The notes below the pieces were generated by a model. It ran no database searches. It was not told where the DNA came from and worked only from the letters and a program-made list of their open reading frames with translations. A stretch of DNA of 64,000 nt from an uncultured Actinomycetes bacterium (GTDB lineage: Bacteria > Actinomycetota > Thermoleophilia > UBA2241), in contig CAVYCN010000008.1 of assembly GCA_963767005.1 (NCBI GenBank), positions 113,021-177,020 of the forward strand, given 5' to 3'. How positions within the stretch are numbered: position 1 is the stretch's first letter; each line of letters opens with the position of its first letter. The translations under genes and the position numbers were made by a program. Of this stretch, positions 1 to 23,172 are shown piece by piece.

Positions 1-296
1 GGTCCGATGAAGGCCCAGAACTCGTAGATCACGATCGGCGACGCCAGGATCACGCCGACGTACGCCCACACCTTGAGGCTGACCATGAAGGGCTCGGCCG
101 GGCTGAACGTGGTGATCTTGTGGGGCACGTTCCCGGGGAGCCCCGCGAGCGGGTGGCGCATGAGGGCGAAGACCTGGTCGTTCAGCACGGCGGCGATGAC
201 GATGCCGACGCCGAGCGCGATGGCCGCGATGATGATGCGGCGGCGCAGCTCGTCGAGGTGATCGACGAGGGTGACGCGTTCGTCGAACCCGACCAT
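1..296 (-). CDS. tatC: Twin-arginine translocase subunit TatC (5' part; runs off the window start)
   Basis: Manual translation from ATG at 296: MVGFDERVTLVDHLDELRRRIIIAAIAL...TFSPAEPFMVSLKV...ASPIVIYEFWAFIG. Contains the HLxELRxR and YxxWxFI TatC motifs. Confidence 0.93.
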   Translation of the reverse strand, partial: MVGFDERVTLVDHLDELRRRIIIAAIALGVGIVIAAVLNDQVFALMRHPLAGLPGNVPHKITTFSPAEPFMVSLKVWAYVGVILASPIVIYEFWAFIG

Positions 297-304
297 GCCG
301 AGCG

Positions 305-943
305 TCAGTCGGGGGTCGTCGAGGCCGCTGCCGGGGCGCTGCTGCGGCGCAGCTTGCCGAACGTCTCGACGCCCGCCGGGTCGCCCTGGGCGGCGTCGGG
401 GCCGGCCGCCAGGGCGGCGGACGGCGCGGGAGCGTCGGGTGCGCTCGGCGCCTGCGGGGCGCTGGGCGCGGCGATTGCGGCGTTGTCGACCCCGCTCTCG
501 TCGGCGACCGCGGCGGGCCCGGTCGCCGCGGCGTCGACCGGCACCTCGGGTGCGGCGGGAGCGGCCTCGTCGGTCGGGACCTGGGGTGTGTCCGGAGCGT
601 CCTCGTCGGCCATGCCGGCCGGCTCGGTGAGGGCGGCGCCGGTCACGGCACCGGTCACGGCGGCCGTCACCGCGGCGGGCGCGATGCTGTCGGGCGCCGT
701 GGGGGTGGCGGCGGGCGCGGCGGGCTGGGTGTCGCCGGTGAGGCTGAAGCTCGATTTGAGGTCGTTGACGGAGCCGGCGATGTCGTCGACGCCGATCTGC
801 GAGCGGATCTCGCTCGTGGCCGTCCTGAACTCGCGGATCGCCTGACCAAGCTGCTTGCCCATCTGAGGCAGGCGCTTGGGGCCGAACACCACGAGGGCGA
901 TGACCAGCACCATGAGGAGCTCGGGGAGACCGATGTTGGGCAT
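305..943 (-). CDS. tatB: TatA/TatB-family translocase subunit with long Ala/Pro/acidic low-complexity tail
   Basis: MPNIGLPELLMVLVIALVVFGPKRLPQMGKQLGQAIREFR: TM helix, FGP hinge and amphipathic helix. GAGG SD before ATG 943; lies directly upstream of tatC. Confidence 0.8.
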   Translation of the reverse strand: MPNIGLPELLMVLVIALVVFGPKRLPQMGKQLGQAIREFRTATSEIRSQIGVDDIAGSVNDLKSSFSLTGDTQPAAPAATPTAPDSIAPAAVTAAVTGAVTGAALTEPAGMADEDAPDTPQVPTDEAAPAAPEVPVDAAATGPAAVADESGVDNAAIAAPSAPQAPSAPDAPAPSAALAAGPDAAQGDPAGVETFGKLRRSSAPAAASTTPD

Positions 944-1172
944 GCGAGGACCACCTCTGTGGAATGACAGGCCCGCTTGGACCTCGTACAAAGAGTACGC
1001 ACACCACATCGGAGCGTCAATCGTGGCCCCGGCGCGTCGGCGACGGGGGACGCCGGTAGCCGGGGGCGCCTTGTCCAGCATGTCCAACAGGGCCCCGCCA
1101 GGCGGGCCGAGTCGTCAGAGAATCACCTGCAAATCGGGGAGAACACGGTCCGACGGAAAGGCCGTCGGCCGG

Positions 1173-1262: not shown

Positions 1263-1631
1263 ATGACGAGCGCATTCCTCACGAGCTGGGCTTACGTCGC
1301 CGTGTTCATCGTGGCCGGCGCGGTCATGGTCGTCGGCATCCTGCTGATGTCGCGGCTCGTGTACCCGATCCACCCGTCGCCCGAGAAGTACTCCACGTAC
1401 GAGTGCGGCATCGAGCCGGTCGGCGACTCGTGGCACCCCTTCGCCGTGCGCTACTACATCTTCGCCCTGCTGTTCCTGGTCTTCGACGTCGAGGCCATCT
1501 TCCTCTTCCCGTGGACGCTCTCGTTCCGGCGCTTCGGCACGACGGGCTTCGTCGAGGTCCTGCTGTTCATCGGCGTGCTCGCGGTCGGCCTGCTCTACGC
1601 CTGGCGCAAGGGAGCGCTCGAATGGGCGTGA
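1263..1631 (+). CDS. nuoA: NADH-quinone oxidoreductase subunit A
   Basis: [22 protein letters not shown] and WRKGALEW motifs; 3 TM segments. Confidence 0.96.
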
Positions 1632-2332
1632 TCGACGACGCCGGCCTGCGCGGCTTCGTCGACCGGTTCCAGTACCCGAACATCAGCCAGTTCGAGCGGC
1701 CCAACGTCATCACGACGACCGTCGACTTCATCTTCAGCTGGGCGCGCTCGCACTCGGTGTTCCCGTTCACCTACGGCCTCGCCTGCTGCGCGATCGAGAT
1801 GCTCTCCTCGGGCTTCGCCCGCTTCGACGTCGCGCGGTACGGCATGGAGGTCTTCCGGCCCACGCCGCGCCAGTGCGACCTGATGATCGTGGCCGGCACC
1901 GTCAACGAGAAGATGGCGCCGGTGCTCAAGCGCCTCTACGAGCAGATGTCCGAGCCCAAGTGGGTGATCGCCATGGGCGCCTGCGCGACCAGCGGCGGCC
2001 CGTTCTACGACGGCTACAACGTCGTGAACGGCGTCGACAAGGTCGTGCCGGTCGACGTCTACATCCCGGGCTGCCCGCCGCGCCCCGAGGCGCTCTTCCA
2101 GGGTCTGCTCGAGCTGCAGAAGAAGATCCAGGCGATGCGCATCGTGCCGCCGGTGACCGGCGACGTCGCGGCGAGCGAGCGCGACGAGCGCGCCGCCGCG
2201 CAGCAGGCGGTCGCCGACCTCGACGGCAGCGCCGCCGAGGTCGGCGCGGCGCAGGTCGCCGCGCCCGACACCGAGCCGGCCGTGGCGTCCGCCGCGACCG
2301 CCCGAGCCGCCCGCGACGGGGACGAGGGCTAA
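1622..2332 (+). CDS. nuoB: NADH-quinone oxidoreductase subunit B
   Basis: [18 protein letters not shown] and [13 protein letters not shown] (N2 cluster ligands); Ala-rich C-terminal tail. Confidence 0.96.
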
Positions 2333-2334
2333 CC

Positions 2335-2829
2335 GTGCTGCCCGCCATCGGTGCGGCCGGCCTGTCCGTCGCCGACGTCGCCGCGCGTCTGACCGAGGCC
2401 TTCGGCGACGACCTCGCCGGGCCGCGCGTCCAGGGCGCCGGCACGGTCGTCGCCGGCGTCGACCGCGCCCGCCTGCACGACGTCGCCGAGCGGCTGCGCG
2501 CGCTCGAGGGTCTCGCCTACGAGTCGTGCAACTTCATCGCCGCGGTCGACCACGGCGACCGCTACGAGACGGTCTACCACCTCTACTCCTACGCCTCGAA
2601 CACGTACCTCGAGCTGCACGTCGACGTGCCGCGCGGCAAGCCGGCGGTGGCCACCGTGTCCGACGTCTGGCCGGCGGCCGACTGGCACGAGCGCGAGGCC
2701 TGGGACATGATGGGCATCCGCTTCGAGGGTCACCCCGACCTGCGCCGCATCCTGCTGGCCGACGGCTGGGTCGGCCACCCGCTGCGCAAGGACTACGTCG
2801 ACTCGGTCGAGAACCACCCCCATGTCTGA
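2335..2829 (+). CDS. nuoC: NADH-quinone oxidoreductase subunit C
   Basis: WHEREAWDMMGIRFEGHPDLRRILL...GHPLRKDY signature; GTG start after GAGGG. Confidence 0.95.
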   Translation: MLPAIGAAGLSVADVAARLTEAFGDDLAGPRVQGAGTVVAGVDRARLHDVAERLRALEGLAYESCNFIAAVDHGDRYETVYHLYSYASNTYLELHVDVPRGKPAVATVSDVWPAADWHEREAWDMMGIRFEGHPDLRRILLADGWVGHPLRKDYVDSVENHPHV

Positions 2830-4036
2830 CCAGTTCGCGACAGCCGTGCCCGACGAGGCCATGGCCCTGGCGCTGCGCCGTATCGCCGAGTCCGAGGCCG
2901 AGGGCCAGGGCAGCGACATGGCCGGCCTGGGCTTCAACCAGGTGGTCGTCAACATGGGGCCGCAGCACCCCTCGACCCACGGTGTGCTGCGCCTGGTCGT
3001 CACGCTCGACGGCGAGCTCGTCAAGGACGTCATCCCCGTCGTCGGCTACCTGCACCGCAGCTTCGAGAAGATCGCCGAGAAGCGCACGTACTACCAGTAC
3101 ATCCCCTACCCGGCTCGCACCGAGTACCTGGCCGGCATCAACTGCGAGTGGGCCTACCTGCTCGCCGTCGAGCAGCTCGCCGGCATCACGCCCACGCGCC
3201 GCGCCGAGTTCGTCCGCGTGATCATGGCCGAGCTCAACCGCATCGCGAGCCACCAGGTGGGCGTCGGCACGTTCGTGGCCGACCTCGCGCCGCTCGGCAC
3301 GGCGATGGTCTTCTACGCCTTCCGTCACCGCGAGCAGATCCTCGACCTGCTCGAGGCCGCGACCGGAGCGCGCATGATGTTCAACTACCTGCGCTTCGGC
3401 GGCGTGCGCGACGACCTGCCCGACGGCTGGATCGAGTCGTGCCGGGCGGCGATGCAGAAGGTGCCGGCCTGGTGCGACGAGTACGAGCGGCTCGTCAACG
3501 ACAATGCCGTCTTCCTGCAGCGCTGCGTCGGCAAGGGCGTGATCACCCAGGACGACGTGGCCGACTACGCCATCACCGGCCCCAACGCGCGCGCCTCGGG
3601 CGTGGCCCACGACCTGCGCCGCACCCGGCCCTACTCGGTCTACCCCGAGCTCGACTTCGCGGTCTGCACGGCCGAGCACGGTGACGTGTACGACCGCTAC
3701 CTGGTGCGGATCGACGAGATCCGCGAGTCGGCGAAGATCGTGCTGCAGTGCCTCGACATGCTGCCGGCCGGTCCCGTACGTCTGGGCACCCTCAGGCCGC
3801 CCTACGTCATCGCCCCGCCGCCGGGCGCCTGCTACGTCGGGCAAGAGAACCCGCGCGGCGAGTTCGGCACCTACGTCGTGAGCGACGGCTCGCGCTACCC
3901 GTACCGGCTCAAGTACCGCGACCCCTGTTTTGTGAACCTGCAGATCTTTCCCAAGCTGCTGCGCGGCAACAAGATCGCCGACGCCGTCGCCATCTCGGGG
4001 AGCATGGACATGGTGCTCGGAGGGATCGACCGCTGA
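2822..4036 (+). CDS. nuoD: NADH-quinone oxidoreductase subunit D
   Basis: NMGPQHPSTHGVLR, GYLHR, ELNRIASH, ENPRGE and C-terminal DMVLGGIDR; no NiFe-binding CxxC pairs. Confidence 0.96.
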   Translation: MSDQFATAVPDEAMALALRRIAESEAEGQGSDMAGLGFNQVVVNMGPQHPSTHGVLRLVVTLDGELVKDVIPVVGYLHRSFEKIAEKRTYYQYIPYPARTEYLAGINCEWAYLLAVEQLAGITPTRRAEFVRVIMAELNRIASHQVGVGTFVADLAPLGTAMVFYAFRHREQILDLLEAATGARMMFNYLRFGGVRDDLPDGWIESCRAAMQKVPAWCDEYERLVNDNAVFLQRCVGKGVITQDDVADYAITGPNARASGVAHDLRRTRPYSVYPELDFAVCTAEHGDVYDRYLVRIDEIRESAKIVLQCLDMLPAGPVRLGTLRPPYVIAPPPGACYVGQENPRGEFGTYVVSDGSRYPYRLKYRDPCFVNLQIFPKLLRGNKIADAVAISGSMDMVLGGIDR

Positions 4037-5151
4037 TGGACATCTTCCTCGCCATCGTGCGGTGCGTCGTCGCGGTGCTGATCGCCTACGGCATCGTGTT
4101 CGCCGCGGCGCTCGTCAACATCCTCTTCGAGCGCCGCGCGCTCGCCTTTCTGCAGGACCGCCTGGGCCCCAACCGGACCGGCTGGCAGGGCAGCCTGCAG
4201 AGCGTCGCCGACGCCTTCAAGATGATGGGCAAAGAGGACTTCGCCCCGAGCGCCGCCGACAAGGCGATGTTCACGCTGGCGCCGATCATGGTCATGATCG
4301 GCGCCGTCGCGATCCAGGTCGTCGTGCCCTACACGAGCGGCTGGACCGACCAGAACCTGAACGTCGGCCTCATCTACATCGTCGCCATCACGAGCTTCAC
4401 CGTGCTTGCGATCCTGCTCGGCGGCTGGGCCTCCCACAACAAGTACTCGCTGGTCGGCGCGCTGCGCTCGGGCGCCCAGATGATCTCGTACGAGGTGCCG
4501 ATGATCCTCGCGCTGCTCGTCGTCGCCATGGGCGCGGGCTCGCTCAGCCTGAACACGGTGGTCGCGGTCCAGCGCCACTACGAGTGGTTCGCGTTCACCA
4601 TGCCGTTCACGTTCCTGCTCTTCTTCATCGCCTCGATCGCCGAGCTCAACCGCGGCCCCTTCGACCTGCCCGAGTCCGAGTCCGAGCTCGTCGCCGGCTA
4701 CGGCACCGAGTACTCCGGCATGCGCTTCGGCATGTTCTTCCTGAACGAGTATGCCGGCATGACGATCATGTCGATGGTCACGGTCACGCTGTTCCTGGGC
4801 GGCTGGCAGGGGCCGCTGGCCGGCGCGCTCGTCGTGCACGGGGTGGCGATCGTGCCGATCCTCTGGTTCCTGATCAAGGTGTACGCGCTCGTGTTCGCGC
4901 TCATCTGGATCCGCCTGTCGGTGCCCCGCCTGCAGGTCGACCAGCTCATGGGCTTCGCCTGGAAGGTCCTCATCCCACTCGGCCTGGTCAACGTGCTCGC
5001 CACGGCGGCCGTCGCGCTCTGGGCGCCCCACTGGAAGCTCGCCATGGCGGCCTATAGCTGGATCGCCTTGATCGCCTTCGTCGGCCTGTTCGACGCGGTG
5101 CTGCGCTGGCGCCTGCGGCGCCAGCGTCGGCGCGTTACGGTGACCGCCTGA
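4036..5151 (+). CDS. nuoH: NADH-quinone oxidoreductase subunit H
   Basis: ERRALAFLQDRLGPNR, QMISYE and NRGPFDLPESESELVAGY motifs. Confidence 0.96.
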   Translation: MDIFLAIVRCVVAVLIAYGIVFAAALVNILFERRALAFLQDRLGPNRTGWQGSLQSVADAFKMMGKEDFAPSAADKAMFTLAPIMVMIGAVAIQVVVPYTSGWTDQNLNVGLIYIVAITSFTVLAILLGGWASHNKYSLVGALRSGAQMISYEVPMILALLVVAMGAGSLSLNTVVAVQRHYEWFAFTMPFTFLLFFIASIAELNRGPFDLPESESELVAGYGTEYSGMRFGMFFLNEYAGMTIMSMVTVTLFLGGWQGPLAGALVVHGVAIVPILWFLIKVYALVFALIWIRLSVPRLQVDQLMGFAWKVLIPLGLVNVLATAAVALWAPHWKLAMAAYSWIALIAFVGLFDAVLRWRLRRQRRRVTVTA

Positions 5152-5912
5152 TGCTCGGCATCCTCAAGGCCATGGGCACCACGCTGGCGCACCTGCCGCA
5201 GCGCAAGATCACGGTGCAGTACCCCGAGGAGCGCGAGCAGCTGCCGGAGCGCAGCCGTGGCCTGTTCCAGGTGGTGACCGACCCCGCCACCGGCGAGCCT
5301 GCCTGCCGCGCCTGCACGCTGTGCGAGACCAACTGCCCGGTGCAGGTCATCCGCGTGAACTACACCTCGACCCACGCCCTGCCGGCGGTCGACGACGCGC
5401 GCATCACGCGCGTGCGGGCAGCGGCGCAGCCCGTGCCCGACACGACGCTGATCGCGCCGGTGATCGACCAGTACCGCAAGACCGGCCAGGGCCTCATGGG
5501 CGTCCTGCAGCACACCCAGGAGATCTACGGCTACCTGCCGCGCCTCGCCCTGCAGGAGATCGCGGTCGAGACCGGCGTCTCGCTGTCGCAGCTCTACGGC
5601 GTGGCGAGCTTCTACGACCAGTTCCGCCTGAACCCCGTGGGCCGCTTCGTCGTGACCGTCTGTCACGGCACCGCCTGCCACGTCGCCGGCGCGCCGCTCA
5701 TCACCGAGGCCTTCTCCGAGGAACTCGGCCTCGAGGTCGGCAAGACCAGCAAGGACCGCCTCTTCACCCTGCAGACCGTGAGCTGCGTCGGCGCCTGCGC
5801 CCTGGCCCCGGTAGTGCGCATCGGCGACGATGAGACTCACGGCCGCATGACGCCCGACAAGGCGCGCAGCCTGGTCGGCGAGCTGCGCCACCGCGCCGAG
5901 GTCGACCGATGA
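5151..5912 (+). CDS. Fusion of the NuoI N-terminal half (one CxxCxxCxxxCP) and a NuoE/HydC [2Fe-2S] subunit
   Basis: Residues ~1-70 are the NuoI N-terminus (ITVQYPEEREQLPERSRG...CRACTLCETNCP). The remainder is NuoE/HydC (YGYLP, GVASFY, VCHGTACH, SCVGACALAP). Confidence 0.9.
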   Translation: MLGILKAMGTTLAHLPQRKITVQYPEEREQLPERSRGLFQVVTDPATGEPACRACTLCETNCPVQVIRVNYTSTHALPAVDDARITRVRAAAQPVPDTTLIAPVIDQYRKTGQGLMGVLQHTQEIYGYLPRLALQEIAVETGVSLSQLYGVASFYDQFRLNPVGRFVVTVCHGTACHVAGAPLITEAFSEELGLEVGKTSKDRLFTLQTVSCVGACALAPVVRIGDDETHGRMTPDKARSLVGELRHRAEVDR

Positions 5913-7825
5913 GCGTGGCGATCGATCGCGGCAGCCTGATCGAAGCCGCCCTCGCCCGCGCGCTGCACCCCGAGAGCATCATCGCCCACGAGGGCGCCCG
6001 CGAGGTGCGCATCTGCGCCGGCACGGCCTGCCACGCGTCCGGCCGTCCGGCCGTCACCGCCGCCTTCCGCGAGCAGCTCGCCGACAAGGGCCTGGCCGAC
6101 ACGGTGCGGGTCGTCGAGACCGGCTGCCACGGCTTCTGCGAGCAGGGCCCGATCGTGCTGCTGCAGCCCCAGGGCCTGTTCTACTCGCGGGTGCGGGCGA
6201 CCGATGTGGCCGGCATCATCACGGCCAGCATCGAGGCCGACGGCGTCTACGAGAAGCGCCTCTACAAGCACCCGGCGACCGGCGAGCCGGTGCCCCACGA
6301 GGAGGACATCCCGTTCTACGCCGGGCAGCGCCGTCTCGTGCTCAACTTGAACGGCCGCATCGACCCCTACTCGATCGACGACTACCTCGCCCAGGACGGC
6401 TATCGCGCGCTGGCCGACGTGCTCGTGCGCGACGACCCGGTCGGCGTGATCGACGACATCGAGAACTCGGGGTTGCGCGGCCGCGGCGGCGCCGGCTTTC
6501 CGGCCGGCCGCAAGTGGCGCTCCTGCCGGGCCAACCCCGGCGACTGCAAGTACGTCATCTGCAACGGTGACGAGGGCGACCCCGGCGCCTTCATGGACCG
6601 CTCGGTGCTCGAGGGCAACCCGCACTCGGTGGTCGAGGGCATGATCATCGCCGCCTATGCGATCGGCTCGGGCGTGGCGCCGGTGCACGGCTTCGTGTAC
6701 GTGCGCGCCGAGTATCCGTTCGCCGTGCAGCGCCTCGACGCCGCCCTCGCCCAGGCGCGCGAGCGCGGCCTGCTCGGCGCGAACATCCTCGACTCGGGCT
6801 TCGACTTCGACATCCGCATCAACCAGGGCGCCGGCGCCTTCGTCTGCGGCGAGTCCACGGCGCTCACCGCGAGCATCGAGGGCCAGCGCGGCATGCCGCG
6901 CGGCAAGCACATCCGCACCGTCGCCCACGGCCTCTACGGCCAGCCGACCAACCTGAACAACGTCGAGACGTTCGCCAACGTGCCCTGGATCGTGTCGCAC
7001 GGCGTCGACGCCTACCGCGCGATGGGCACCGAGACCTCGAAGGGCACCAAGATCTTCTCGCTCACCGGCAAGCTCCAGAACGGCGGCCTCGTCGAGGTGC
7101 CGATGGGCGCCACGCTGCGCGAGGTCATCTTCGACGTGGGCGGCGGCATGCTGCCCGGCCGCGAGTTCAAGGCCGTGCAGCTCGGCGGCCCCTCGGGCGG
7201 CTGCCTGCCGGCCGACCTGCTCGACTCGCCCGTCGACTTCGAGAGCCTGCTGGCCGCCGGCTCGATGATGGGCTCGGGCGGCATGGTCGTGGTCGACGAC
7301 TCGACCTGCATGGTCGACTTCGCCAAGTTCTTCCTGCAGTTCACCCAGGACGAGAGCTGCGGCAAGTGCGTGCCCTGCCGCCTGGGCACCAAGCGCATGC
7401 TCGAGACGCTCGTGCGCATCACCGAGGGCGAGGGCCGGCCCGACGACATCGAGCTCCTCGAGGAGCTGTCCGAGTACATCATCGACGGCTCGCTGTGCGC
7501 CCTCGGCGGCAGCGCCCCCAACCCGGTGCTCAGCACGCTGCGCTACTTCCGCGACGAGTACGTCGCCCACGTCGAGGACCGGTGCTGCCCCGCCGGTCGC
7601 TGCAAGGCGCTCATCACCTACTACATCAGCGGCGACTGCACCGGCTGCGGGCTCTGCGCCAAGAAGTGCCCGACCCAGGCGATCACCGGCGAGCGCAAGC
7701 AGATGCACGTGATCGACACCGACCTCTGCATCAAGTGCGACACCTGCCGCCAGGTTTGCAACTTCAACGCCGTCCGGGTGCACTCGGGCTCGCAGGCCGG
7801 CGCGGCCGACGGAGGTGCGGCGTGA
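5909..7825 (+). CDS. nuoF: NuoF/HydB-type FMN/NADH-binding subunit with extra N-terminal [2Fe-2S] and C-terminal 2x[4Fe-4S] domains
   Basis: SGLRGRGGAGFP, CNGDEGDPGAFMDR, GAFVCGE, GGPSGG and ESCGKCVPCR. N-terminal CAGTAC..GCHGFC; C-terminal HVEDRCCPAGRC, CTGCGLCAKKCP and CIKCDTCRQVC. Confidence 0.92.
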   Translation: MSVAIDRGSLIEAALARALHPESIIAHEGAREVRICAGTACHASGRPAVTAAFREQLADKGLADTVRVVETGCHGFCEQGPIVLLQPQGLFYSRVRATDVAGIITASIEADGVYEKRLYKHPATGEPVPHEEDIPFYAGQRRLVLNLNGRIDPYSIDDYLAQDGYRALADVLVRDDPVGVIDDIENSGLRGRGGAGFPAGRKWRSCRANPGDCKYVICNGDEGDPGAFMDRSVLEGNPHSVVEGMIIAAYAIGSGVAPVHGFVYVRAEYPFAVQRLDAALAQARERGLLGANILDSGFDFDIRINQGAGAFVCGESTALTASIEGQRGMPRGKHIRTVAHGLYGQPTNLNNVETFANVPWIVSHGVDAYRAMGTETSKGTKIFSLTGKLQNGGLVEVPMGATLREVIFDVGGGMLPGREFKAVQLGGPSGGCLPADLLDSPVDFESLLAAGSMMGSGGMVVVDDSTCMVDFAKFFLQFTQDESCGKCVPCRLGTKRMLETLVRITEGEGRPDDIELLEELSEYIIDGSLCALGGSAPNPVLSTLRYFRDEYVAHVEDRCCPAGRCKALITYYISGDCTGCGLCAKKCPTQAITGERKQMHVIDTDLCIKCDTCRQVCNFNAVRVHSGSQAGAADGGAA

Positions 7826-10266
7826 GCGCGCAGCCTCGCGACGCCGCTAAGGCGGCCGCGCCGGCCTCCCGCCCGGTGGCCGCCGTGCCGCAGATGACGC
7901 TCACGGTCGACGGGCACGAGGTGACGTGCGACCGCGGCGAGACCATCCTGCAGGCCGCCGAGCGGGCCGGGGTGCGCATCCCGACGCTGTGCTACGAGTC
8001 GCGTCTGCCGGCCTCGGCCGCCTGCCGCCTGTGCATGGTCGAGGTCGAGGGCTGGGGCAAGCCGGTGTCGAGCTGCTCGACCTACGCCGCCGACGGCATC
8101 GTCGTGCACACCGACACCGAGAAGGTGCGCAAGATGCGGCGGCTCTATCTCGAGCTGCTGCTGTCCGACCACAGCTCGTTCTGCACGCCGCCCTGCGCCG
8201 ACGCCTGCCCGACGGGGATCAAGATCCCGCAGTTCCTCGACGCCGTCGCACGGGGCGACTACGCCGCCGGCGTGCGCAAGCTGCGCGAGGACCTGCCGTT
8301 CCCGGCGATCCTCGGGCGCGTCTGCCCGCGGCCCTGCGAGGAGCCCTGCCGACGCCGTCTCGTCGACGAGCCCATCACGATCTGCTCGCTGCACCGCTTC
8401 ATGGCCGACCAGTGCCTCGACGACGAGCAGACCGGCGAGCTGCTCCTGCCCTACGAGCCGCGGCCCGACAGCGGCAAGCGTGTCGCCGTCGTTGGCGCCG
8501 GGCCGGCCGGCCTGGCCTGCGCGTTCTACGCCCGCCTCGACGGCCACCAGGTGACGATCTTCGAGGCCGAGTCGCGGCCCGGCGGCATGCTGCGCTACGG
8601 CATCCCCAGCTTCCGCCTGCCGCGCGAGGTGCTCGACAAGGAGCTCAACGTGCTCTGGCGCCTGGGCGTCGAGCTCGAGTGCGGCAAGCGCCTCGGCGCC
8701 GACCTGCGGCTCGACGACCTGACGGCGTCCTACGACGCCGTGTTCCTCGGCTTGGGCGCGCTGCACACCCCGGCGCTCGCCGTCGCCGGCGCCGAAGCGG
8801 CCGGCGTGACCGACGCGCTCGAGCTGCTGGCCGGCCTCGAGCGCGGCGACGACGTGACGGTCGGCGGCACGGTGGCCGTCGTCGGCGACGGCTTCGCCGC
8901 CGCCGAGGCCTGCCGCGTGGCGCGCCGCAAGGGCGCGACCGACGTCACCTGGCTCGCGCCGGGCGCGCGGGCCGACATGGCGACGCCGGCGGCCGAGATC
9001 GCCGCGGCACTCGACGAGGGCGTGCGGCTCGAAGAGGCCGTGGCGCCGATCGCCCTGCAGACCGGCGCCGGCGGCGCGCCGACCGGCATCGAGCTGCGTC
9101 GCGACGGCGGCGCCACGTTCGTGCTGGCCTGCGACCAGGTCGTGAACGCCGGCGCCCACGTGCCGCAACTCGACGGCACAAGCGAAGCGCAAGGCGTGGG
9201 CCGCACGGCGGCCGGCACCGTCCGCGTGAACGACGACACCCTGCAGACCGACGATCCGCGCATCTTCGCCGGCGGCGACGCCGTGCTGGGCGCGCGCACG
9301 GCGGTCGAGGCGGTCGCCCAGGGCAAGCGCGCCGCCTGGAGCATCGACGCGTTCCTGCGCGGCCACGACATGGCGGCCGTCGCGCGCGAGCTCGCCGAGG
9401 TGCGGGCGACGGCCTTCCCGGCCGCGCTCGCGGCGCGCAAGCGGCTCGACCCGGCCGTCGCCCGCCTGGCGGACGTCAAGCCGGTGTTCATCGACATGAC
9501 GGTCGACGTCTCGCACCCGGCGCCGCGGCCGCGCATGCCCGAGCTGCCGGCGGCCGAGCGCGTGACCGGCTTCGCCGAGGTCGAGCTCGGCCTGACCGAG
9601 GAGCAGGCGCGCGAGGGCGCGGCCCTGTGCCTCGACTGCCACTGCCCGGCCAACGGCGAGTGCGAGCTGCAGAGCCTCGGCATCGAGTACGAAGTCTTCG
9701 AGAACCGCTTCCACGGGCAGGCGACCCACGACTACCCGGCCGACCTGCGCCACGACTTCATCATGCGCGAGCCCAACCGCTGCATCATGTGCCTGCGCTG
9801 CGTGCGCGTCTGCCGCATGGAGGTCGGGGCGAGCTGCTACGATGCCATGGGGCGCGGCTGGGACACGATCGTCTCGACGCCCGACAACCTGCCGCTGCAG
9901 ACGGTCGGCTGCATCTCGTGCGGCAAGTGCGCCGAGACCTGCCCGACCGGCTCCATCGAGATCGACCGGCGCGTGCTGCGCAGCTACGATTTAGACGAGA
10001 GCCGCTGCATCTTCTGCGGCGAGTGCGTCGAGGTGTGTCCCTACGACGCGCTCGAGCAGACCGCCTTCTTCGAGCTCGCCGGCTACAGCCGCACGAAGCT
10101 CGCCGGCGAGTCGCTGTTCGTGCGCGTCCCGCAGAAGACCGACGGGCCGCGCCCCATCGTGGCCGACGTCGAGCCCCATGTGCGCGACGCGGTCGAGGGC
10201 AGAGGCTGGCAGTGGGCGCCGCTCAAGGGCGACGGCGACCTCGACGAGATCGAGCGTGACCTCTGA
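7822..10266 (+). CDS. Multidomain Fe-S flavoprotein: NuoG/HydA N-terminal Fe-S domains, inserted GltD/NfnB-like FAD domain and NuoI C-terminal half
   Basis: GTG after GGAGG. IPTLC..ACRLCMVE..SSC ([2Fe-2S]); PPCADACP, GRVCPRPCEEPC, VAVVGAGPAG, GGMLRYGIP and IFAGGD (GltD); CIMCLRCVRVC and CISCGKCAETCP (NuoG ferredoxin domain); YDLDESRCIFCGECVEVCPYDAL...FELA (NuoI C-half). Confidence 0.9.
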   Translation: MSAQPRDAAKAAAPASRPVAAVPQMTLTVDGHEVTCDRGETILQAAERAGVRIPTLCYESRLPASAACRLCMVEVEGWGKPVSSCSTYAADGIVVHTDTEKVRKMRRLYLELLLSDHSSFCTPPCADACPTGIKIPQFLDAVARGDYAAGVRKLREDLPFPAILGRVCPRPCEEPCRRRLVDEPITICSLHRFMADQCLDDEQTGELLLPYEPRPDSGKRVAVVGAGPAGLACAFYARLDGHQVTIFEAESRPGGMLRYGIPSFRLPREVLDKELNVLWRLGVELECGKRLGADLRLDDLTASYDAVFLGLGALHTPALAVAGAEAAGVTDALELLAGLERGDDVTVGGTVAVVGDGFAAAEACRVARRKGATDVTWLAPGARADMATPAAEIAAALDEGVRLEEAVAPIALQTGAGGAPTGIELRRDGGATFVLACDQVVNAGAHVPQLDGTSEAQGVGRTAAGTVRVNDDTLQTDDPRIFAGGDAVLGARTAVEAVAQGKRAAWSIDAFLRGHDMAAVARELAEVRATAFPAALAARKRLDPAVARLADVKPVFIDMTVDVSHPAPRPRMPELPAAERVTGFAEVELGLTEEQAREGAALCLDCHCPANGECELQSLGIEYEVFENRFHGQATHDYPADLRHDFIMREPNRCIMCLRCVRVCRMEVGASCYDAMGRGWDTIVSTPDNLPLQTVGCISCGKCAETCPTGSIEIDRRVLRSYDLDESRCIFCGECVEVCPYDALEQTAFFELAGYSRTKLAGESLFVRVPQKTDGPRPIVADVEPHVRDAVEGRGWQWAPLKGDGDLDEIERDL

Positions 10267-10769
10267 TGCCGCAGGGCGACTTCCATCCCATCCTGTTCGT
10301 GATCGTCGCCGTCTGGGTGCTGGGCTGCGGCATCGCCGTGGTCGCCCTGCGCAACATCGTGCACTCGGCGATGGCGATGGTGGCCTGCTTCCTGGGCGTG
10401 GCGGCGGCCTACGTGCTGCTCGACGCCGGCCTGCTCGCCGTCATCCAGATCCTGATCTACGTGGGCGCCATCTCGGTCGTCGTGCTGTTCGCCATCATGC
10501 TGACCGAGCAGCAGCGCACCGGTCGCGGCTTCTACTTCAACCGCCAGTCGATCGTCGCCCTGCCGCTTGCCGTCGCGACCTTCGTCGTGCTCACCGTCGT
10601 GCTCGTGACCTCGAAGATGCCGCTCAGCGGCAGCCACGCGCACAATGTCTCGCTGACCGGCATCGCAAACGGCCTCTTCAGCGCCTACGTCTTTCCGTTC
10701 GAGCTCGTCTCGATCGTCCTGCTGTCGGCCATGGTCGGCGCCATCGTGCTGGCCCGCAAGGAGGACTAG
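10266..10769 (+). CDS. nuoJ: NADH-quinone oxidoreductase subunit J
   Basis: QILIYVGAISVVVLFAIML and YVFPFELVSIVLL motifs. Confidence 0.95.
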   Translation: MPQGDFHPILFVIVAVWVLGCGIAVVALRNIVHSAMAMVACFLGVAAAYVLLDAGLLAVIQILIYVGAISVVVLFAIMLTEQQRTGRGFYFNRQSIVALPLAVATFVVLTVVLVTSKMPLSGSHAHNVSLTGIANGLFSAYVFPFELVSIVLLSAMVGAIVLARKED

Positions 10770-10834
10770 CCGTGCCACGCAGTCACACCTGGCTGAGCCA
10801 CAACAACGCAAGCCCATTGGGGGACTAGCAGGCC

Positions 10835-11143
10835 GTGAGCCCCGTCGACTGGTATCTGACCCTCGCCTCCGGCCTCTTCTGCATCGGCGCCTACGGCGTG
10901 CTCGCGCGGCGCAACGTCGTGCTCATCGTGATGAGCCTCGAGCTCATGCTGAACGCCGTGAACCTCGCCCTCGCCGCCTTCGCCGACTTCATGCCGGGGG
11001 CCGCCGGTCGCGGCACCTTCTTCGTGCTGTTCATCATCACCCTGGCGGCCGCCGAAGTGACGGTCGGCCTGGCGATCATCGTCGCCAACTACCGCAACCG
11101 CCGGTCGGTGCAGGCCGACGAGTTCAGCGAGATGAAGGGCTAG
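10835..11143 (+). CDS. nuoK: NADH-quinone oxidoreductase subunit K
   Basis: RRN..MSLELMLNAVN and AAAEVTVGLA motifs. Confidence 0.96.
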   Translation: MSPVDWYLTLASGLFCIGAYGVLARRNVVLIVMSLELMLNAVNLALAAFADFMPGAAGRGTFFVLFIITLAAAEVTVGLAIIVANYRNRRSVQADEFSEMKG

Positions 11144-11153
11144 GGGGCCCGCC

Positions 11154-13049
11154 GTGCACGTCGCCATCGCCCTGATCCCGGCCCTGCCGCTCGCCGGCTT
11201 CGTGATCACGCTGCTGCTCGGCCGCAACGCGCTGGCCCGGCGGCCCGAGGTCGCGTCGCTCGCCGCCGTCACCGGCTCGTGGGTGCTCAGCATGGTCGTC
11301 GTGGCGCACGTCTTCGGCCACCACACGCAGACGATCGACGTGCACCTGTTCAGCTGGGTCTCGGCCGGCTCGTTTCAGGTGCAGTGGGGCTACTACGTCG
11401 ATGCGCTCGCCGCCGTCATGCTCATCGTGGTCAGCACGATCGGCATGCTCGTGCACTACTACTCGATCGGCTACATGCGCGGCGACGGTGGCTACTACCG
11501 ATTCTTCGCCTACCTCAACCTCTTCATGTTCGCCATGTTCACCCTCGTGCTGGCCGACAACTACCTGCTCATGTTCCTGGGCTGGGAGGGCGTGGGCCTC
11601 TGCTCGTACCTGCTGATCTCGTTCTGGTTCCACAAGAAGAGCGCCTCGCAGGCCGGCAAGAAGGCCTTCCTCGTCAACCGCGTGGGCGACTGGGGCTTCA
11701 CCCTGGGCGTGTTCCTCATGTTCGTGACGTTCGGCACCCTGCAGTTCTCGCAGGTCTTCGCCCACGCGGCCCACGTGAGCCCGGGTCTCGTCACCTGGAT
11801 CAGCCTGCTGCTCTTCGTCGGCGCGGTCGGCAAGAGCGCCCAGTTCCCGCTGCACGTCTGGCTGCCCGACGCGATGGAGGGCCCGACCCCGGTCAGCGCC
11901 CTGATCCACGCCGCCACGATGGTGAACGCCGGCGTCTACATGATCGCCCGCAGCTACCCGCTCGTGAGCCACTCGCACACCGCCATGCTCGTCGTCATGG
12001 GGGTGGGCTGCTTCACGGCGATCTACGCCGCCTGTATCGCGCTCACCCAGAACGACATCAAGAAGGTGATCGCCTACTCCACGATCTCGTCGCTCGGCTT
12101 CATGTTCATGGCGCTCGGCGCGGGCGCCTGGGTGGCAGGCATCTTCTACCTGTTCGCCCACGGCTTCTTCAAGGGCCTGCTCTTCCTGGGCTCGGGCTCG
12201 GTGATCCACGCCATGTCGGGCGAGCAGGACATGCGTCACATGGGCGGCCTGCGCAAGAAGCTGCCGCTCACCTTCTGGACGATGATGGTCGGCGCCCTCG
12301 CCAACGTCGGTCTGTTCCCGTTCGCCGGCTTCTGGGCCAAGGACGAGATCCTGGGCGGCGCCTTCTCGGGCCACTACTACGTGGTCTGGCTGGTGGGTCT
12401 GGTCACCGCCTTCGTGACGGCGGTGTTCATGTTCCGCCTCATGTTCCTGACCTTCTGGGGCGAGAACCGCGCCGACGCCGAGGTGCAGCATCACATCCAC
12501 GAGTCGTCGGCCGTGATGACCGTGCCGCTCGTCATCCTTGCCGTGCCGGCCGCGGTGCTCGGCCTGGTGATCGGCCTGCCGCCCGGCGGCGGCTGGCTGC
12601 ACACCTTCCTGCACCCGGTCTTCTTCAGAGTCGAGAGCGAGCACTTCGCCTGGGCCGGCACCGGTGGCGCCCTCATGCTCCTGTCGCTCGTCGTGGTCGT
12701 GCTCGGCATCGGCACGTCGTGGCAGGCCTACCTGCGGCGCCCCGAGCTGCCCGCGCGAGTCGCCGCTCGCGTGCCCTGGGCCTACCAGGCGTCGCTGCAC
12801 AAGTTCTATATGGACGAGATCTACGACGCCGGTGTGGTGCGTCCGGTCATGGGCTTCGCCTCGTGGCTGTGGACGTTCGTCGACGTCAAGGTGGTCGACG
12901 GCGCCGTCAACGGCATCGCCGCCGTCTGGGCCGCCTTCGGGCGCGCCCTGCGGCCGCTGCAGACCGGCCGCGCCCAGAGCTACGCGTTCGGCGTCTTCGG
13001 CGGCCTGTTCGTGCTCGTCATCATCGTCCGCTACGTCTGGAGGGCCTGA
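11154..13049 (+). CDS. nuoL: NADH-quinone oxidoreductase subunit L
   Basis: GWEGVGLCSYLL and GKSAQFPLHVWLPDAMEGPTPVSALIHAATMV motifs. Confidence 0.97.
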   Translation: MHVAIALIPALPLAGFVITLLLGRNALARRPEVASLAAVTGSWVLSMVVVAHVFGHHTQTIDVHLFSWVSAGSFQVQWGYYVDALAAVMLIVVSTIGMLVHYYSIGYMRGDGGYYRFFAYLNLFMFAMFTLVLADNYLLMFLGWEGVGLCSYLLISFWFHKKSASQAGKKAFLVNRVGDWGFTLGVFLMFVTFGTLQFSQVFAHAAHVSPGLVTWISLLLFVGAVGKSAQFPLHVWLPDAMEGPTPVSALIHAATMVNAGVYMIARSYPLVSHSHTAMLVVMGVGCFTAIYAACIALTQNDIKKVIAYSTISSLGFMFMALGAGAWVAGIFYLFAHGFFKGLLFLGSGSVIHAMSGEQDMRHMGGLRKKLPLTFWTMMVGALANVGLFPFAGFWAKDEILGGAFSGHYYVVWLVGLVTAFVTAVFMFRLMFLTFWGENRADAEVQHHIHESSAVMTVPLVILAVPAAVLGLVIGLPPGGGWLHTFLHPVFFRVESEHFAWAGTGGALMLLSLVVVVLGIGTSWQAYLRRPELPARVAARVPWAYQASLHKFYMDEIYDAGVVRPVMGFASWLWTFVDVKVVDGAVNGIAAVWAAFGRALRPLQTGRAQSYAFGVFGGLFVLVIIVRYVWRA

Positions 13050-13051
13050 CC

Positions 13052-14641
13052 GTGGGCTGGCATCAGCAGGCGGGCTTTCCCATCCTCTCGGTCATCACGT
13101 ACCTGCCGCTCGTCGGCGTCGTGATCATCGCCCTGTTCGGCAGGGGCCGGCCGACCTTCTACAAGGTCGTCAGCCTGGTCGTCACGCTGGCCGCCTTCGC
13201 GCTGTCGATCGTGCTGCTGCTCCGCCTCCACGCGAACCGGCCCGGCATGCAGTTCGTCGAGAACGTCGTCTGGATCAAGCGCTTCAACATCCACTACGGC
13301 TTCGGCATCGACGGCATCTCGGCGCTGTTCATCTTCCTGACCACGCTGCTCGGCTTCATCGTGATCATCGCGAGCTGGCACTACGTCAAGGACCGCGAGC
13401 GCGGCTTCTTCGCGACGCTGCTGCTCCTCCAGGTCGGCATGACCGGCGTGTTCTGCGCGACCGACATCTTCCTGTTCTACGTGTTCTGGGAGGCCATGCT
13501 GATCCCGATGTTCTTCATCATCGGGATCTGGGGCGGTCCCCGGAAGATCTACGCCGCCGTCAAGTTCTTCCTGTTCACGCTGGTCGGCAGCGTGCTCATG
13601 CTGGTCGCCATCATCGCCCTGGTCTGGTACGCGCGCGGCAACTCGCCGGTCGGGCTGACGTTCGACATCCAGCAGCTCTCGCACCTGATCCTGCCCTACG
13701 ACCTGCAGCTCTGGGCCTTCGCCGCCTTCTTCGTCGCCTTCGCCATCAAGGTGCCGATGTGGCCGCTCCACACCTGGCTGCCCGACGCCCACGTCGAGGC
13801 CCCGACGGCGGGCTCCGTGATCCTCGCCGGCGTCCTGCTGAAGATGGGCGGCTACGGCATGCTGCGCTTCTGCCTGCCGATCTTCCCCGACGCCGCGGTC
13901 GCCTTCATCCCGCTCGTCGTCGCCCTGTCGATCGTGGCCATCATCTACGGCGCCCTGGTGTCGATGCAGCAGAAGGACTTGAAGAAGCTCGTCGCCTACT
14001 CGAGCGTCAGCCACATGGGCTTCGTCACGCTCGGCATCTTCGTGTCGGTGGCCGTGCTCGGCAACGCCCAGGGCATGGTGGGCGCGATCCTCGTCATGTT
14101 CAGCCACGGCCTGCTCACGGGCGCCCTGTTCCTGCTGGTCGGCTTCCTCTACGAGCGCACGCACACGCGTGAGATCGCCGCGATGGCCCGTCTGGCCACG
14201 CCGCTGCCGGTGCTGGCCGGCTTCTTCCTGTTCTTCACGCTCGGCTCGCTCGGCCTGCCCGGCCTGTCGGGCTTCGTGGGCGAGTTCCTGAGCCTGCTCG
14301 GCCTGTTCCACTACTCGCACTGGATGGCGGCCGTCGCCGCCCTCGGCGTGATCCTGGCGGCCTGCTACCTGCTCTGGATGTTCCAGCGCGTCATGTTCAA
14401 CGACCGCGGCGACGAGGCGGTCAAGCCGGCCTTCGCCCTGTCCGACTTCGGTGCGCGCGAGATCGCGTCGCTGCTGCCGCTCGTCGTGCTCGCCGTGTGG
14501 GTGGGCGTCTACCCCAACACCTTCATCAATCTCGTCCACCTGCCGGTCCAGCAGATCGTCGATCGCGTCGTGCCGTCCCTCGCCCAGGCCCACGGCGGGA
14601 CACTCGCCGACCTCGGTCGTTTCGCACGGGGGCTGCTCTAG
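13052..14641 (+). CDS. nuoM: NADH-quinone oxidoreductase subunit M
   Basis: FYVFWE, IKVPMWPLHTWLPDAHVEAPT and AYSSVSHMG motifs. Confidence 0.96.
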   Translation: MGWHQQAGFPILSVITYLPLVGVVIIALFGRGRPTFYKVVSLVVTLAAFALSIVLLLRLHANRPGMQFVENVVWIKRFNIHYGFGIDGISALFIFLTTLLGFIVIIASWHYVKDRERGFFATLLLLQVGMTGVFCATDIFLFYVFWEAMLIPMFFIIGIWGGPRKIYAAVKFFLFTLVGSVLMLVAIIALVWYARGNSPVGLTFDIQQLSHLILPYDLQLWAFAAFFVAFAIKVPMWPLHTWLPDAHVEAPTAGSVILAGVLLKMGGYGMLRFCLPIFPDAAVAFIPLVVALSIVAIIYGALVSMQQKDLKKLVAYSSVSHMGFVTLGIFVSVAVLGNAQGMVGAILVMFSHGLLTGALFLLVGFLYERTHTREIAAMARLATPLPVLAGFFLFFTLGSLGLPGLSGFVGEFLSLLGLFHYSHWMAAVAALGVILAACYLLWMFQRVMFNDRGDEAVKPAFALSDFGAREIASLLPLVVLAVWVGVYPNTFINLVHLPVQQIVDRVVPSLAQAHGGTLADLGRFARGLL

Positions 14642-16165
14642 ATGAACAACTCGGTCTTCATCGTGCTGCCCACCGTCGTCATCCTCGCGACCGCGGTGGT
14701 CGTGCTGCTCGCCGACCTCGTCTTCGAGCGGCGCCCCAAGGTCCTCGGCTGGCTGTCCGCCGGCGGCCTCGTCGTGGCCGCCTCGGTGGCGATCGGCCAG
14801 TGGGCGACCTGGTCGGGTGGCGACGCGCTCTGGCGCGTCTTCACCGGCGGCCTCGGGTTCGGCGCCCGGCAGGGCAGATACGGCTTCAACGGCATGGTCC
14901 GGCTCGACCAGTACGGGCTCTTCTTCACGGTGCTGTTCTGCGCGATCGGCGTGCTCACCGTCCTGCTGTCCGACGGCTACCTTGCCCAGCATCGCATCAA
15001 GGCGGGCGAGTTCTACCTGCTGCTGCTGCTCGCCTTGAGCGGCATGGTCTGCATGGCGATCTCGACCGACCTCATCGCCCTGCTCGTGTCGTTCGAGCTC
15101 ATGTCGTTGCCGAGCTACGTGCTGGCCGGCGTGCTGCGCCGCGACCGCAAGTCGGGCGAGGCGGCCATCAAGTACTTCGTGAACGGCGCCTTCGCGTCGG
15201 CCGTCCTCGCCTTCGGCCTCGCCCTCGTCTACGGCGCGACCGGGGCCACGGGCTACGGCTCCATCCAGCGCTCACTCGCCGCCGGCGACCCGCGCAACGC
15301 GATGCTGCTCGTCGCCCTCGTGCTGGTGGCGACCGGCTTCGGCTTCAAGATCGCAGCGGTGCCGTTCCACGGCTGGGCGCCCGACGTCTACGAAGGCGCC
15401 CCGACGCCGGTCACCGCCTTCATGTCGGTCGGCATCAAGGCCGGCGCCTTCGCCGGCTTCCTGCGTATCGTCGCTCTGGCGCTCATCCCGGCCTCGCAGG
15501 GCTGGTCCGACGTGCTGATCATCCTGGCCGTGCTGACCATGGTCGTCGGCAACGTGCTCGCCCTGCCGCAGCGCAACCTCAAGCGGCTGCTCGCCTACTC
15601 GAGCATCGCGCACGCCGGCTACCTGCTCCTCGGCCTGGTCGCCCTGGGCCGCAGCCACGACACGACCGGCGCCGGCGCGGTCCTGTTCTACCTGGCCGCC
15701 TACACGTTCATGAACCTCGGCGCGTTCGGCGTGCTCGTGCTCATCCGCAACCGCCGGGCCTTTGCCTACACGCTCGACGAGCTCGCCGGCATGGGTCGCA
15801 GCATGCCGCTCACCGCCTTCGCCATGACGCTCTTCATGCTGTCGCTGACCGGCATCCCGCCGCTCGCCGGCTTCTGGGGCAAGTTCTACCTGTTCACGGC
15901 CGTGATCGACGCGCACCTCACCTGGCTCGCGGTCGTCGCCGTCGTGATGAGCGCGGTGTCGGCGTTCTACTACCTGCGGATCGTCTGGTACCTGTACTTC
16001 CGCGAGGCCGAGCCGGCCGCCGAGGAGCCCGAGCTGCTGGCCGCCGACGGCGGCATCGCCAGCGCGACGGCCGTCGCGGTGCTCGGCGTGCTCGCGGTGG
16101 GCGTGTACCCGTCGCCGGTCATCGCCGCGGCGCAGGGAGCCGTGCGCCTCATCTTCAAGGCCTGA
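14642..16165 (+). CDS. nuoN: NADH-quinone oxidoreductase subunit N
   Basis: EAAIKYF, FKIAAVPFHGWAPDVYEGAPTP and KRLLAYSSIAHAGY motifs. Confidence 0.96.
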   Translation: MNNSVFIVLPTVVILATAVVVLLADLVFERRPKVLGWLSAGGLVVAASVAIGQWATWSGGDALWRVFTGGLGFGARQGRYGFNGMVRLDQYGLFFTVLFCAIGVLTVLLSDGYLAQHRIKAGEFYLLLLLALSGMVCMAISTDLIALLVSFELMSLPSYVLAGVLRRDRKSGEAAIKYFVNGAFASAVLAFGLALVYGATGATGYGSIQRSLAAGDPRNAMLLVALVLVATGFGFKIAAVPFHGWAPDVYEGAPTPVTAFMSVGIKAGAFAGFLRIVALALIPASQGWSDVLIILAVLTMVVGNVLALPQRNLKRLLAYSSIAHAGYLLLGLVALGRSHDTTGAGAVLFYLAAYTFMNLGAFGVLVLIRNRRAFAYTLDELAGMGRSMPLTAFAMTLFMLSLTGIPPLAGFWGKFYLFTAVIDAHLTWLAVVAVVMSAVSAFYYLRIVWYLYFREAEPAAEEPELLAADGGIASATAVAVLGVLAVGVYPSPVIAAAQGAVRLIFKA

Positions 16166-17175: not shown

Positions 17176-17274
17176 GCGGCCGCCGCCGGCCATCCAGGGC
17201 ACGCCGGGACCCGGTCCCGGCGCAGGCGCGAGCGCGGCGTCGCGGGGCGCTCAAGTGATGGCGGGGACCCACCG

Positions 17275-18936: not shown

Positions 18937-19067
18937 CGCGGAGAGACCCCCTTCCCCAGCTCCTCCGCCTCGTATAGGCTTGGCGTCGTCGGCGCGGCCG
19001 TCGACGACCCGGGCTCGTCCTTTTGCGGACGCGAAGCCGCGGGCCGGGCGGCCGGACGCGCGAGTGG

Positions 19068-19141
19068 GGCGGCATGGCCAAGTGGTAAGGCGGGGGTGCG
19101 CAACACCTCGATCCCAGGTTCGACTCCTGGTGCCGCCTCCA
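19068..19141 (+). tRNA. tRNA-Cys(GCA) with atypical anticodon loop
   Basis: Cloverleaf: acceptor GGCGGCA/TGCCGCC; D-arm GCC-AAGTGGTAA-GGC; anticodon stem GGGGT/ACCTC with loop GCGCAAC; T-arm CCAGG-TTCGACT-CCTGG; U73 discriminator and encoded CCA. Confidence 0.9.
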
Positions 19142-19329
19142 GTCGTCCCGACGGCATCGTCCGCCGGCCGTCGCCCGGTGCCGCACCCCCTCGCGACCGC
19201 GCTTGGCCACCCTCCCGGCGTCCTTTCGGCGTCGCTTCGGGCGCCGAGGGGTAAGCACGGGCACGGATCCGGCCGATAAGAGCCCGTGAGCGCCGGCGGG
19301 TGCGCGGGCGCAACGACAGAGGAGGAGCG

Positions 19330-20289: not shown

Positions 20290-20302
20290 CGGCCGGCGCG
20301 GG

Positions 20303-20350
20303 GTCGAGCGGGGCGGGGCGCCGCGTCAGCGGCGCCCCGCCCCGCTCGAC
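20303..20350. terminator. Perfect 22-bp-arm hairpin between convergent genes
   Basis: GTCGAGCGGGGCGGGGCGCCGC-GTCA-GCGGCGCCCCGCCCCGCTCGAC. Confidence 0.8.
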
Positions 20351-20374
20351 TGCCTTTGCGTCTCGGATGTGGTC

Positions 20375-23160: not shown

Positions 23161-23172
23161 TAGCCGGGCGCC

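Follow-up and report, generated by a model that had tools for sequence, protein, structure and literature searches.

Which reaction might a complex I catalyze when its nucleotide-binding subunit is of the electron-bifurcating HydB type? The question is raised by a 64,000-nucleotide stretch of DNA from an uncultured Actinomycetes bacterium, here called the window (assembly GCA_963767005.1, contig CAVYCN010000008.1, positions 113,021 to 177,020). An initial annotation, made from the sequence without database searches, had recognized a HydB/StnB-type subunit, here named BfuB, at positions 5909-7825 of its nuo operon. It had suggested that the complex links NADH, ferredoxin and the quinone arm. 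As judged from the reading frames and profile matches, an NfnC-B-A cassette is inserted inside nuoI and fused to both NuoI halves. On balance, it seems probable that reduced ferredoxin and NAD(P)H are confurcated onto menaquinone, with proton pumping, by an NfnABC-type Bfu head in complex I; this reaction is probably reversible.

Domain analysis of the 638-residue BfuB identified an N-terminal thioredoxin-like [2Fe-2S] domain (28-105, E 3e-7; Cys36/41/73/77), followed by the Complex1_51K (184-359), SLBB (383-431), and NADH_4Fe-4S (470-554) Pfam domains. A 4Fe-4S dicluster lies at the C-terminal (572-622; Cys577/580/583/587 and Cys607/610/613/617), and the ligands of the B1 cluster are Cys484/487/490/530. 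All the motifs quoted in the initial annotation are found at the expected places: the flavin mononucleotide (FMN)-site motif at 221-231, the Gly-rich loop at 426-431, and the B2 metal site (His-x5-Cys-Pro-x3-Cys) at His554/Cys560/Cys565, together with Cys467. According to passages of PMC12018979, the FMN-site signature residues are kept in bifurcating enzymes and missing from non-bifurcating ones. The Tsi residues A201, M203, F281, loop 396-400, and His524 correspond to A227, M229, F311, loop 426-430, and His554 in BfuB. Thr505 aligns with the extra B2 cysteine of the A. mobile HydB, which points to Zn in B2, like in the Nfn and FeFe enzymes.

The nine top Protein Data Bank (PDB) matches of BfuB are all BfuB-type (627-784 bits), whereas the respiratory NuoF/Nqo1 entries score at most 358 bits. 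BfuB is also below the curated NuoF cut-off (TIGR01959, 447.9 vs 558.65 bits). The respiratory NuoF/Nqo1 proteins form a compact 51-kDa class with no added cluster domains, and the 638-residue protein falls outside it. A phylogenetic tree was reconstructed with 63 rows from 102 BfuB cores, the stand-alone set being thinned. In this tree, which bears on the grouping check proposed earlier, BfuB sits among the BfuBs, distant from the canonical NuoF of the same genome. The domains, the signatures, and the nine structural matches confirm the predicted BfuB/HydB-type subunit in the nuo operon, with all cofactor sites and bifurcation signatures intact; this assignment is well beyond chance. An opposite-strand open reading frame of 648 residues (5837-7783) is taken not as a gene but as the shadow commonly cast by genes with high G+C at third codon positions (GC3 0.98).

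The operon contains 13 tightly overlapping genes in the order nuoA-B-C-D-H-[253 aa]-[638 aa]-[814 aa]-J-K-L-M-N, and bfuB overlaps both neighbours by stop and start codons (gaps -4 and -4). The best NCBIfam matches of NuoB, NuoD, and NuoH score 254.6, 439, and 336.1 bits, respectively; NuoL (730 bits) and NuoN (421 bits) are both above the cut-off. NuoI is divided between two fusion proteins. The 253-residue protein (5151-5912, + strand) joins the NuoI front half, with one four-Cys ferredoxin motif (Cys52/55/58/62), to BfuC, whose C1 cluster residues (Cys171/176/212/216) are invariant in 28 aligned proteins. All 24 PDB matches of the front half are NuoI/TYKY proteins, such as Nqo9 (residues 6-71). 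The 814-residue protein (7822-10266, + strand) ends in the NuoI back half, which has the other four-Cys motif (Cys729/732/735/739). This half matches Nqo9 residues 86-130, with polyferredoxins ranking above it through repeats. The front and back halves have 37% and 40% sequence identity, respectively, to the intact NuoI of the same genome. The promoter and terminator scan was uninformative (0 promoter-like and 6 terminator-like sites, vs 0.5 and 3.9 in shuffles).

The remainder of the 814-residue protein is a truncated BfuA of the NfnA/StnC type, and the top PDB matches are 9bov_A, 8oh5_C, and 9n5u_A. It consists of a [2Fe-2S] A1 domain, then a GltD/NfnL flavin adenine dinucleotide (FAD) domain within the His-ligated cluster domain, and a 2x[4Fe-4S] A2/A4 domain. 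The C-terminal FdhF-like domain is missing, and the NuoI half stands in its place. The A2 and A4 motifs, both complete and invariant, are followed 22 residues later by the start of the NuoI half. The A3 ligands are present, and the GltD domain is inserted at the A3 arm. Alignments showed that the FAD motifs are retained and the NADPH-binding motifs are decayed: a Gly is changed to Asp356, both Arg at 380-381 are gone, and a loop of about 16 residues is deleted after 428. His191 (window 8392-8394) occupies the position of the cluster-ligand Lys of StnC/NfnA (K170/K165), and is His in nearly all family members. The AlphaFold2 model of this protein was uninformative on the junction, since residues 631-814, even in the ordinary A2/A4 domain, have a predicted local distance difference test (pLDDT) score below 50.

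Homologues of the fusions were searched in related genomes. Among 24 searched genomes of the family, the 814-residue gene is full-length in 15, partial or frameshifted in 6, and not found in 3 (61%, 56%, and 89% complete). In 20 fetched family loci, the front fusion was found in 18, the back fusion in 19, and both in 17; the other three are one frameshifted assembly and two contig ends. Among the matches listed, each of the 120 homologues aligns over at least 95% of the length of the front fusion, and the full-length matches come from records titled uncultured Thermoleophilia or Actinomycetes. Matches spanning the back junction in 400 genomes of the phylum were confined to three families of the same class (f1, f4, and f6). 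The front fusion was found in none of the 28 nuoH loci from 30 genomes of other families. In those loci, nuoH is followed by a one-piece two-motif gene in 21 cases and by a GltD fusion in 4; three are cut or otherwise arranged. An assembly artefact or a chance fusion is ruled out, as the fusions recur across genomes. Among the best 150 clusters at 50% identity, the fusion occurs in a handful (P0045, P0125, P0126, P0127, P0135, and P0235). Two of these are distant (P0127, 41%; P0235, 36%), and the fusion is therefore probably present in further lineages.

A proposal for the electron path can be drawn from the known Bfu enzymes. In these, the third substrate is on the BfuA chain, NAD(P) is the high branch, and ferredoxin is the low branch (passages of PMC11829005). 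Passages on the Bfu structures likewise describe the BfuA chain as the mid-potential path and NAD(P) as the high-potential partner (PMC11829005, PMC12018979, and PMC12318220). With the third substrate on this chain, confurcation or its reverse would be expected, not the splitting of NADH between menaquinone and ferredoxin that the initial annotation had offered as an example. The potentials of such a split, with NAD(P)H electrons running downhill to menaquinone and uphill to ferredoxin, roughly balance without pumping (about +206 and -220 mV from NADH at -280 mV). However, with NuoL, M, and N intact, energy would also be needed for pumping, and the split is very unlikely.

For the confurcating reaction, the ferredoxin electrons would pass from B4/B3 to C1, and the NAD(P)H electrons would pass to FMN. 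The onward path would be B1-A1-A2-A4, then NuoI, NuoB, and menaquinone. The exit by the A4 arm is proposed because the GltD domain occupies the A3 arm, which is where canonical complex I docks on NuoI. An A4 exit to NuoI would explain both the fusion and the retention of the GltD domain after the NADPH site decayed; the domain is probably a structural relic. Since each cluster of the 2x[4Fe-4S] fold is held by three Cys of one motif and one Cys of the other, the two NuoI halves on separate chains would rebuild both NuoI clusters. Passages on related enzymes describe several routes. The Nfn path is FAD-A7-A6-A3-A2-A1-B1, with the GltD clusters feeding A3 (PMC12018979); the other branch of StnC carries no electrons (PMC10482914); and WorABCSL feeds through A4 (PMC12318220).

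The cassette might instead have inactivated nuoI and act as a separate soluble enzyme, with a dead or headless pump left behind. Stand-alone NfnABC operons with the same C-B-A order are indeed common (L053-L120). However, across two families the four Cys of each NuoI half are conserved and the frame is unbroken, and the nuo genes around the cassette are intact and overlap its ends. The NfnA NADPH motifs are also lost, so such an enzyme would have no third substrate if alone. A separate enzyme is thus hardly credible.

The source genome (G000) contains five NuoF/BfuB homologues. A canonical complex I operon with a short NuoF and an intact nuoI lies on the same contig as the window (L127, G000:C8:38-55 kb). 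It adjoins a heme-copper oxidase subunit I gene, and a nuoA match is apart, at C8:60.4 kb. The ferredoxin and menaquinone genes, for which the initial annotation had proposed a search, are present. The former is a 59-residue 2x[4Fe-4S] ferredoxin frame; the latter are futalosine-pathway genes (mqnC above the cut-off, and PF02621 in G000 and 23 of the 24 family genomes). Cytochrome bd and a heme-copper oxidase, two NiFe-hydrogenase large-subunit loci, and the membrane transhydrogenase PntB were also found; the profile search of G000 identified no RnfC above the cut-off. This gene content fits a menaquinone-using facultative organism that may have a separate complex I for oxic and anoxic life. 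Two more BfuB-type genes with BfuC neighbours are on other contigs (L128 and L129, G000:C3 and C6); after the C6 bfuB come genes for a BfuA that carries a molybdopterin-type domain and for a GltD-like protein.

The energetics also bear on the reaction. The potential of menaquinone is given as -74 mV in a passage of PMC9304861. At a proton-motive force of 150-180 mV, the computed number of protons per two electrons is 2.3-3.3 for NADH, 3.5-4.2 for NADH with ferredoxin, and 4.0-4.8 for NADPH with ferredoxin. With the donor potentials averaged (-390 to -435 mV), the drop to menaquinone would suffice for about four protons; the drop from NADH alone would not. An uncoupled input is a rival explanation: menaquinone would take electrons from NAD(P)H by itself (or from ferredoxin by itself), and an ordinary NAD(P)H:quinone pump would carry a borrowed head, with the bifurcation parts as baggage. 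Since the potential of menaquinone exceeds that of NAD(P)H by about 200-300 mV, the flow needs no coupling. The Nuo loci of relatives were scored where both sites are scorable (56 loci; some DNA is counted twice, and loci with missing parts are left out). The BfuB signatures are decayed in 10 of these, among them the loci of the f6 family, which has lost BfuC and the ferredoxin domain and has an intact NfnA NADPH site. However, the window and 46 of the 56 loci keep all signatures, and a canonical complex I for NADH is already in the genome. An uncoupled input is unlikely.

The enzyme might also run mainly in reverse, with the proton-motive force lifting menaquinol electrons and BfuBC bifurcating them to NAD(P)+ and ferredoxin for biosynthesis. 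The 316-361 mV that two electrons would have to climb correspond to four protons at 160-180 mV, the characterized Bfu enzymes run both ways (T. kivui, passages of PMC8578170), and the profile search found no Rnf above the cut-off. However, the genome encodes its own ferredoxin reducers (the 2-oxoacid oxidoreductase and the two NiFe-hydrogenase loci) and the transhydrogenase for NADPH, and sequence cannot tell direction. A mainly reverse function is quite unlikely, although near equilibrium a reverse run of the confurcating enzyme could yield reduced ferredoxin.

Several points weigh against the confurcating reaction. Motifs do not prove coupling, and the gate could leak, given the positive potential of menaquinone. 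The ten Nuo loci with decayed signatures suggest that bifurcation is dispensable in some relatives. The NADPH potential (-370 mV) and the proton-motive force used in the calculation are assumed values. The BfuB tree covers neither the Nuo-Bfu clade 38/39 references nor the PDB proteins. It also showed that BfuB was exchanged between paralogous cassettes, so the intact BfuB could partly reflect gene conversion.

The nucleotide may be NADH or NADPH. Glu286 of the Tsi NfnB is reported to select NADH over NADPH (passages of PMC12018979); the window BfuB has Ser316 at this position, and the following loop is changed. The link to NAD(P)H made in the initial annotation is kept, but its choice of NADH is weakened, as the nucleotide may be NADPH. 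Ser is likewise found in the T. kivui HydB (8a6t_B) and the A. mobile WorB (9mqx_B), and the loop after the Ser position in WorB resembles that of the window BfuB. The T. kivui HydABC has 20.8 U/mg with NADP+ vs <0.01 U/mg with NAD+ (passages of PMC8578170; also PMC10021017). The A. mobile WorABCSL is reported to need NAD, with NAD(H) bound in the map; the relevant passages of PMC12318220 do not state a trial with NADP. Since the NAD-using WorB is also Ser-type, the Ser residue does not settle the nucleotide.

Among the 56 Nuo loci, intact Glu-type BfuB occurs with an intact NfnA NADPH site in 34 and with a decayed one in 0; Ser-type BfuB occurs with a decayed site in 11 and an intact one in 1. 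In 28 loci with the cassette in a Por operon, 27 have Ser-type BfuB and all 28 have a decayed NADPH site. In the BfuB tree, the window BfuB groups with the Por-cassette BfuBs and L031 (support 100/100, all Ser-type). Three loci go against this pattern: L031, with Ser and an intact site; L275, with Glu and a decayed site; and L209, also with Glu and a decayed site, which is outside the 56 and may be chimeric. Beside an NADP-type BfuB, an NADPH site on NfnA would serve no purpose, and this would account for the pattern. On the NfnA tree, the supported branches require the Ser label to have changed at least three times. The independent-pairs test of Ser type against NADPH-site decay gave three supported pairs, with 1-2 concordant and 0 opposite, and was not significant (p 0.5-1). 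Ser316 and the decay pattern hint at NADPH use, although the comparison is underpowered, and for this lineage NADPH and NADH seem about equally likely.

A second copy of the cassette was found in a Por operon of the source genome, on contig C16 (L126:11340-19466). The order is porC, porD, porA, half::bfuC, bfuB, nfnA'::half::porB. This operon encodes a 2-oxoacid:ferredoxin oxidoreductase, and its BfuB is the sister group of the window BfuB. The ferredoxin halves of the C16 cassette still resemble NuoI, from which we infer that the Por cassette was derived from the Nuo version. A wider evolutionary proposal is more tentative, and rather unlikely as a whole. In this proposal, NfnABC was clamped on complex I via a split NuoI, giving an NADPH/ferredoxin-confurcating pump, and the clamp was reused on the 2-oxoacid oxidoreductase; in some lineages an NADP-type BfuB came in and the NfnA NADPH site decayed. 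If this is true, a reverse run would give reduced ferredoxin from menaquinol by proton-motive force alone. Relatives with both nucleotide sites would be four-substrate enzymes, using NADH, NADPH, ferredoxin, and menaquinone.

Altered versions of the module were also observed. In three f6 loci (L132, L133, and L138), the NuoI front half is joined via a BfuC remnant to a reduced BfuB. This BfuB has no thioredoxin domain, ferredoxin domain, or signatures, and the NfnA NADPH site is intact; the f6 version is likely a plain NADPH:quinone enzyme. In L039:7358-11627 (G011), where BfuB is ruined, the place of the NfnA NADPH domain is taken by a 2x[4Fe-4S] domain that resembles the BfuB C-terminus; nuoA-N are 86-98% identical to those of the window. 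This is possibly a ferredoxin-only version. In four loci of another class of the phylum (L199-L202, f32), an eleven-gene nuo operon has a GltD-like flavoprotein of 640-670 residues in the nuoI slot, which ends in two ferredoxin motifs. This arrangement is a separate way to place NAD(P)H input on complex I.

The features of the operon are listed below. On its 5' side, twin-arginine translocase-like genes, recognized from translation only, are divergent from nuoA (window 3-1087, - strand). On the 3' side (16402-26000) are a TIGR00282 phosphoesterase, a sugar-phosphate transferase, and a polysaccharide cluster.

Table 1. Features of the nuo operon and its inserted cassette, in window positions
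Feature	Position	Strand	Evidence
nuoA, nuoB, nuoC, nuoD, nuoH (quinone module and first membrane genes)	1263..5151	+	NCBIfam matches, overlapping junctions
NuoI front half, residues 1-74, fused in frame to BfuC	5151..5372	+	TIGR01971 positions 2-66 of 121
BfuC/NuoE-like thioredoxin [2Fe-2S] domain, same reading frame as NuoI front half	5460..5912	+	PF01257 at 104-245, E 1e-43
bfuB (HydB/StnB/NfnB type), 638 residues	5909..7825	+	open frame, Pfam, PDB matches, residue mapping
Top PDB matches of BfuB			7t2r_B, 8a6t_B, 9bov_B, 7q4v_B, 8oh5_B, 9n5u_B, 9mqx_B, 7p5h_B, 7q4w_B
Truncated NfnA/StnC-type BfuA	7822..9954	+	Pfam, PDB, alignments
NuoI back half and tail, fused in frame to truncated NfnA	9967..10266	+	TIGR01971 positions 68-115
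nuoJ, nuoK, nuoL, nuoM, nuoN (proton-pumping membrane arm)	10266..16165	+	profile matches, open reading frames, junctions

If the confurcating reaction is true, flavin-based confurcation is joined directly to the complex I pump, and the energy for four protons per two electrons in menaquinone-only cells would be accounted for. The split NuoI would be a route to a complex I input head other than NuoEFG docking. The family forms a natural series for asking which parts are needed: some members have both sites intact, and others lack the NADPH site, BfuB, or the two together. The Ser316 vs Glu difference makes the NAD/NADP rule of the HydB-type subunits testable. The Nuo-Bfu concept itself dates from 2022, and the hosts appear to be uncultured.

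The closest known system is Nuo-Bfu, and the statement of the initial annotation that Nuo-associated members had been noted bioinformatically was correct. Passages of Schut et al. (2022, PMC9304861) predict it from genomes, with 51 sequences and BfuB clades 38 and 39 (such as Geobacter sulfurreducens), in the Deferribacteres, Proteobacteria, Planctomycetes, and Nitrospirae. They describe 14 subunits (A-N), Type 3, with the A3 route assumed, and predict menaquinone reduction by NAD(P)H plus ferredoxin, coupled to proton pumping. The string 'Actinobacteri' is absent from the main text of PMC9304861, although its Supplementary Table 1 could list these organisms. A search of titles and abstract openings, with subscription papers outside it, found no published account of the split-NuoI graft and no study in which a proton-pumping Bfu enzyme of the membrane was assayed.

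The nuo operon of the window shares several features with other known enzymes. Like canonical 14-subunit complex I (Nqo1-14), it has NuoA-D, H, and J-N, all scoring as Nuo; unlike canonical complex I, it lacks a compact NuoF, a NuoG with the molybdopterin-like domain, and a one-piece NuoI. The features of the Bfu (HydABC-type) family are present: a complete BfuB, an adjoining BfuC with the C1 cluster, and the FMN-site signatures. The Nfn-Bfu/StnABC enzymes (PDB 9bov, 8oh5, 9n5u; PMC10482914, PMC11829005, PMC12018979) share the C-B-A order, the BfuB cofactor set, and the GltD FAD domain with two clusters in BfuA. However, they are soluble, and their BfuA has 963-1178 residues, whereas that of the window has 814 residues and lies in a nuo operon. 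The window NADPH motifs are decayed, and His191 replaces the StnC Lys ligand K170. In the window, the pump is fused to the branch that in StnC is without electron flow. The C16 cassette resembles the predicted Por-Bfu (passages of PMC9304861) in its porC-porD-porA ... porB operon; Por-Bfu has four separate Por subunits, but in the C16 operon PorB continues the NfnA chain after the NuoI-like back half. Like Nuo-Bfu, the window has bfuABC within a nuo operon in place of nuoEFG, and the same reaction would be expected. Unlike Nuo-Bfu, this operon has 13 genes, a cassette in a split nuoI, two fusions, and a BfuA with the NfnL/GltD domain, and the exit would be via A4. By these comparisons, the window module is a real Bfu-family module that would work like Nuo-Bfu, but not in the 14-subunit form as described.

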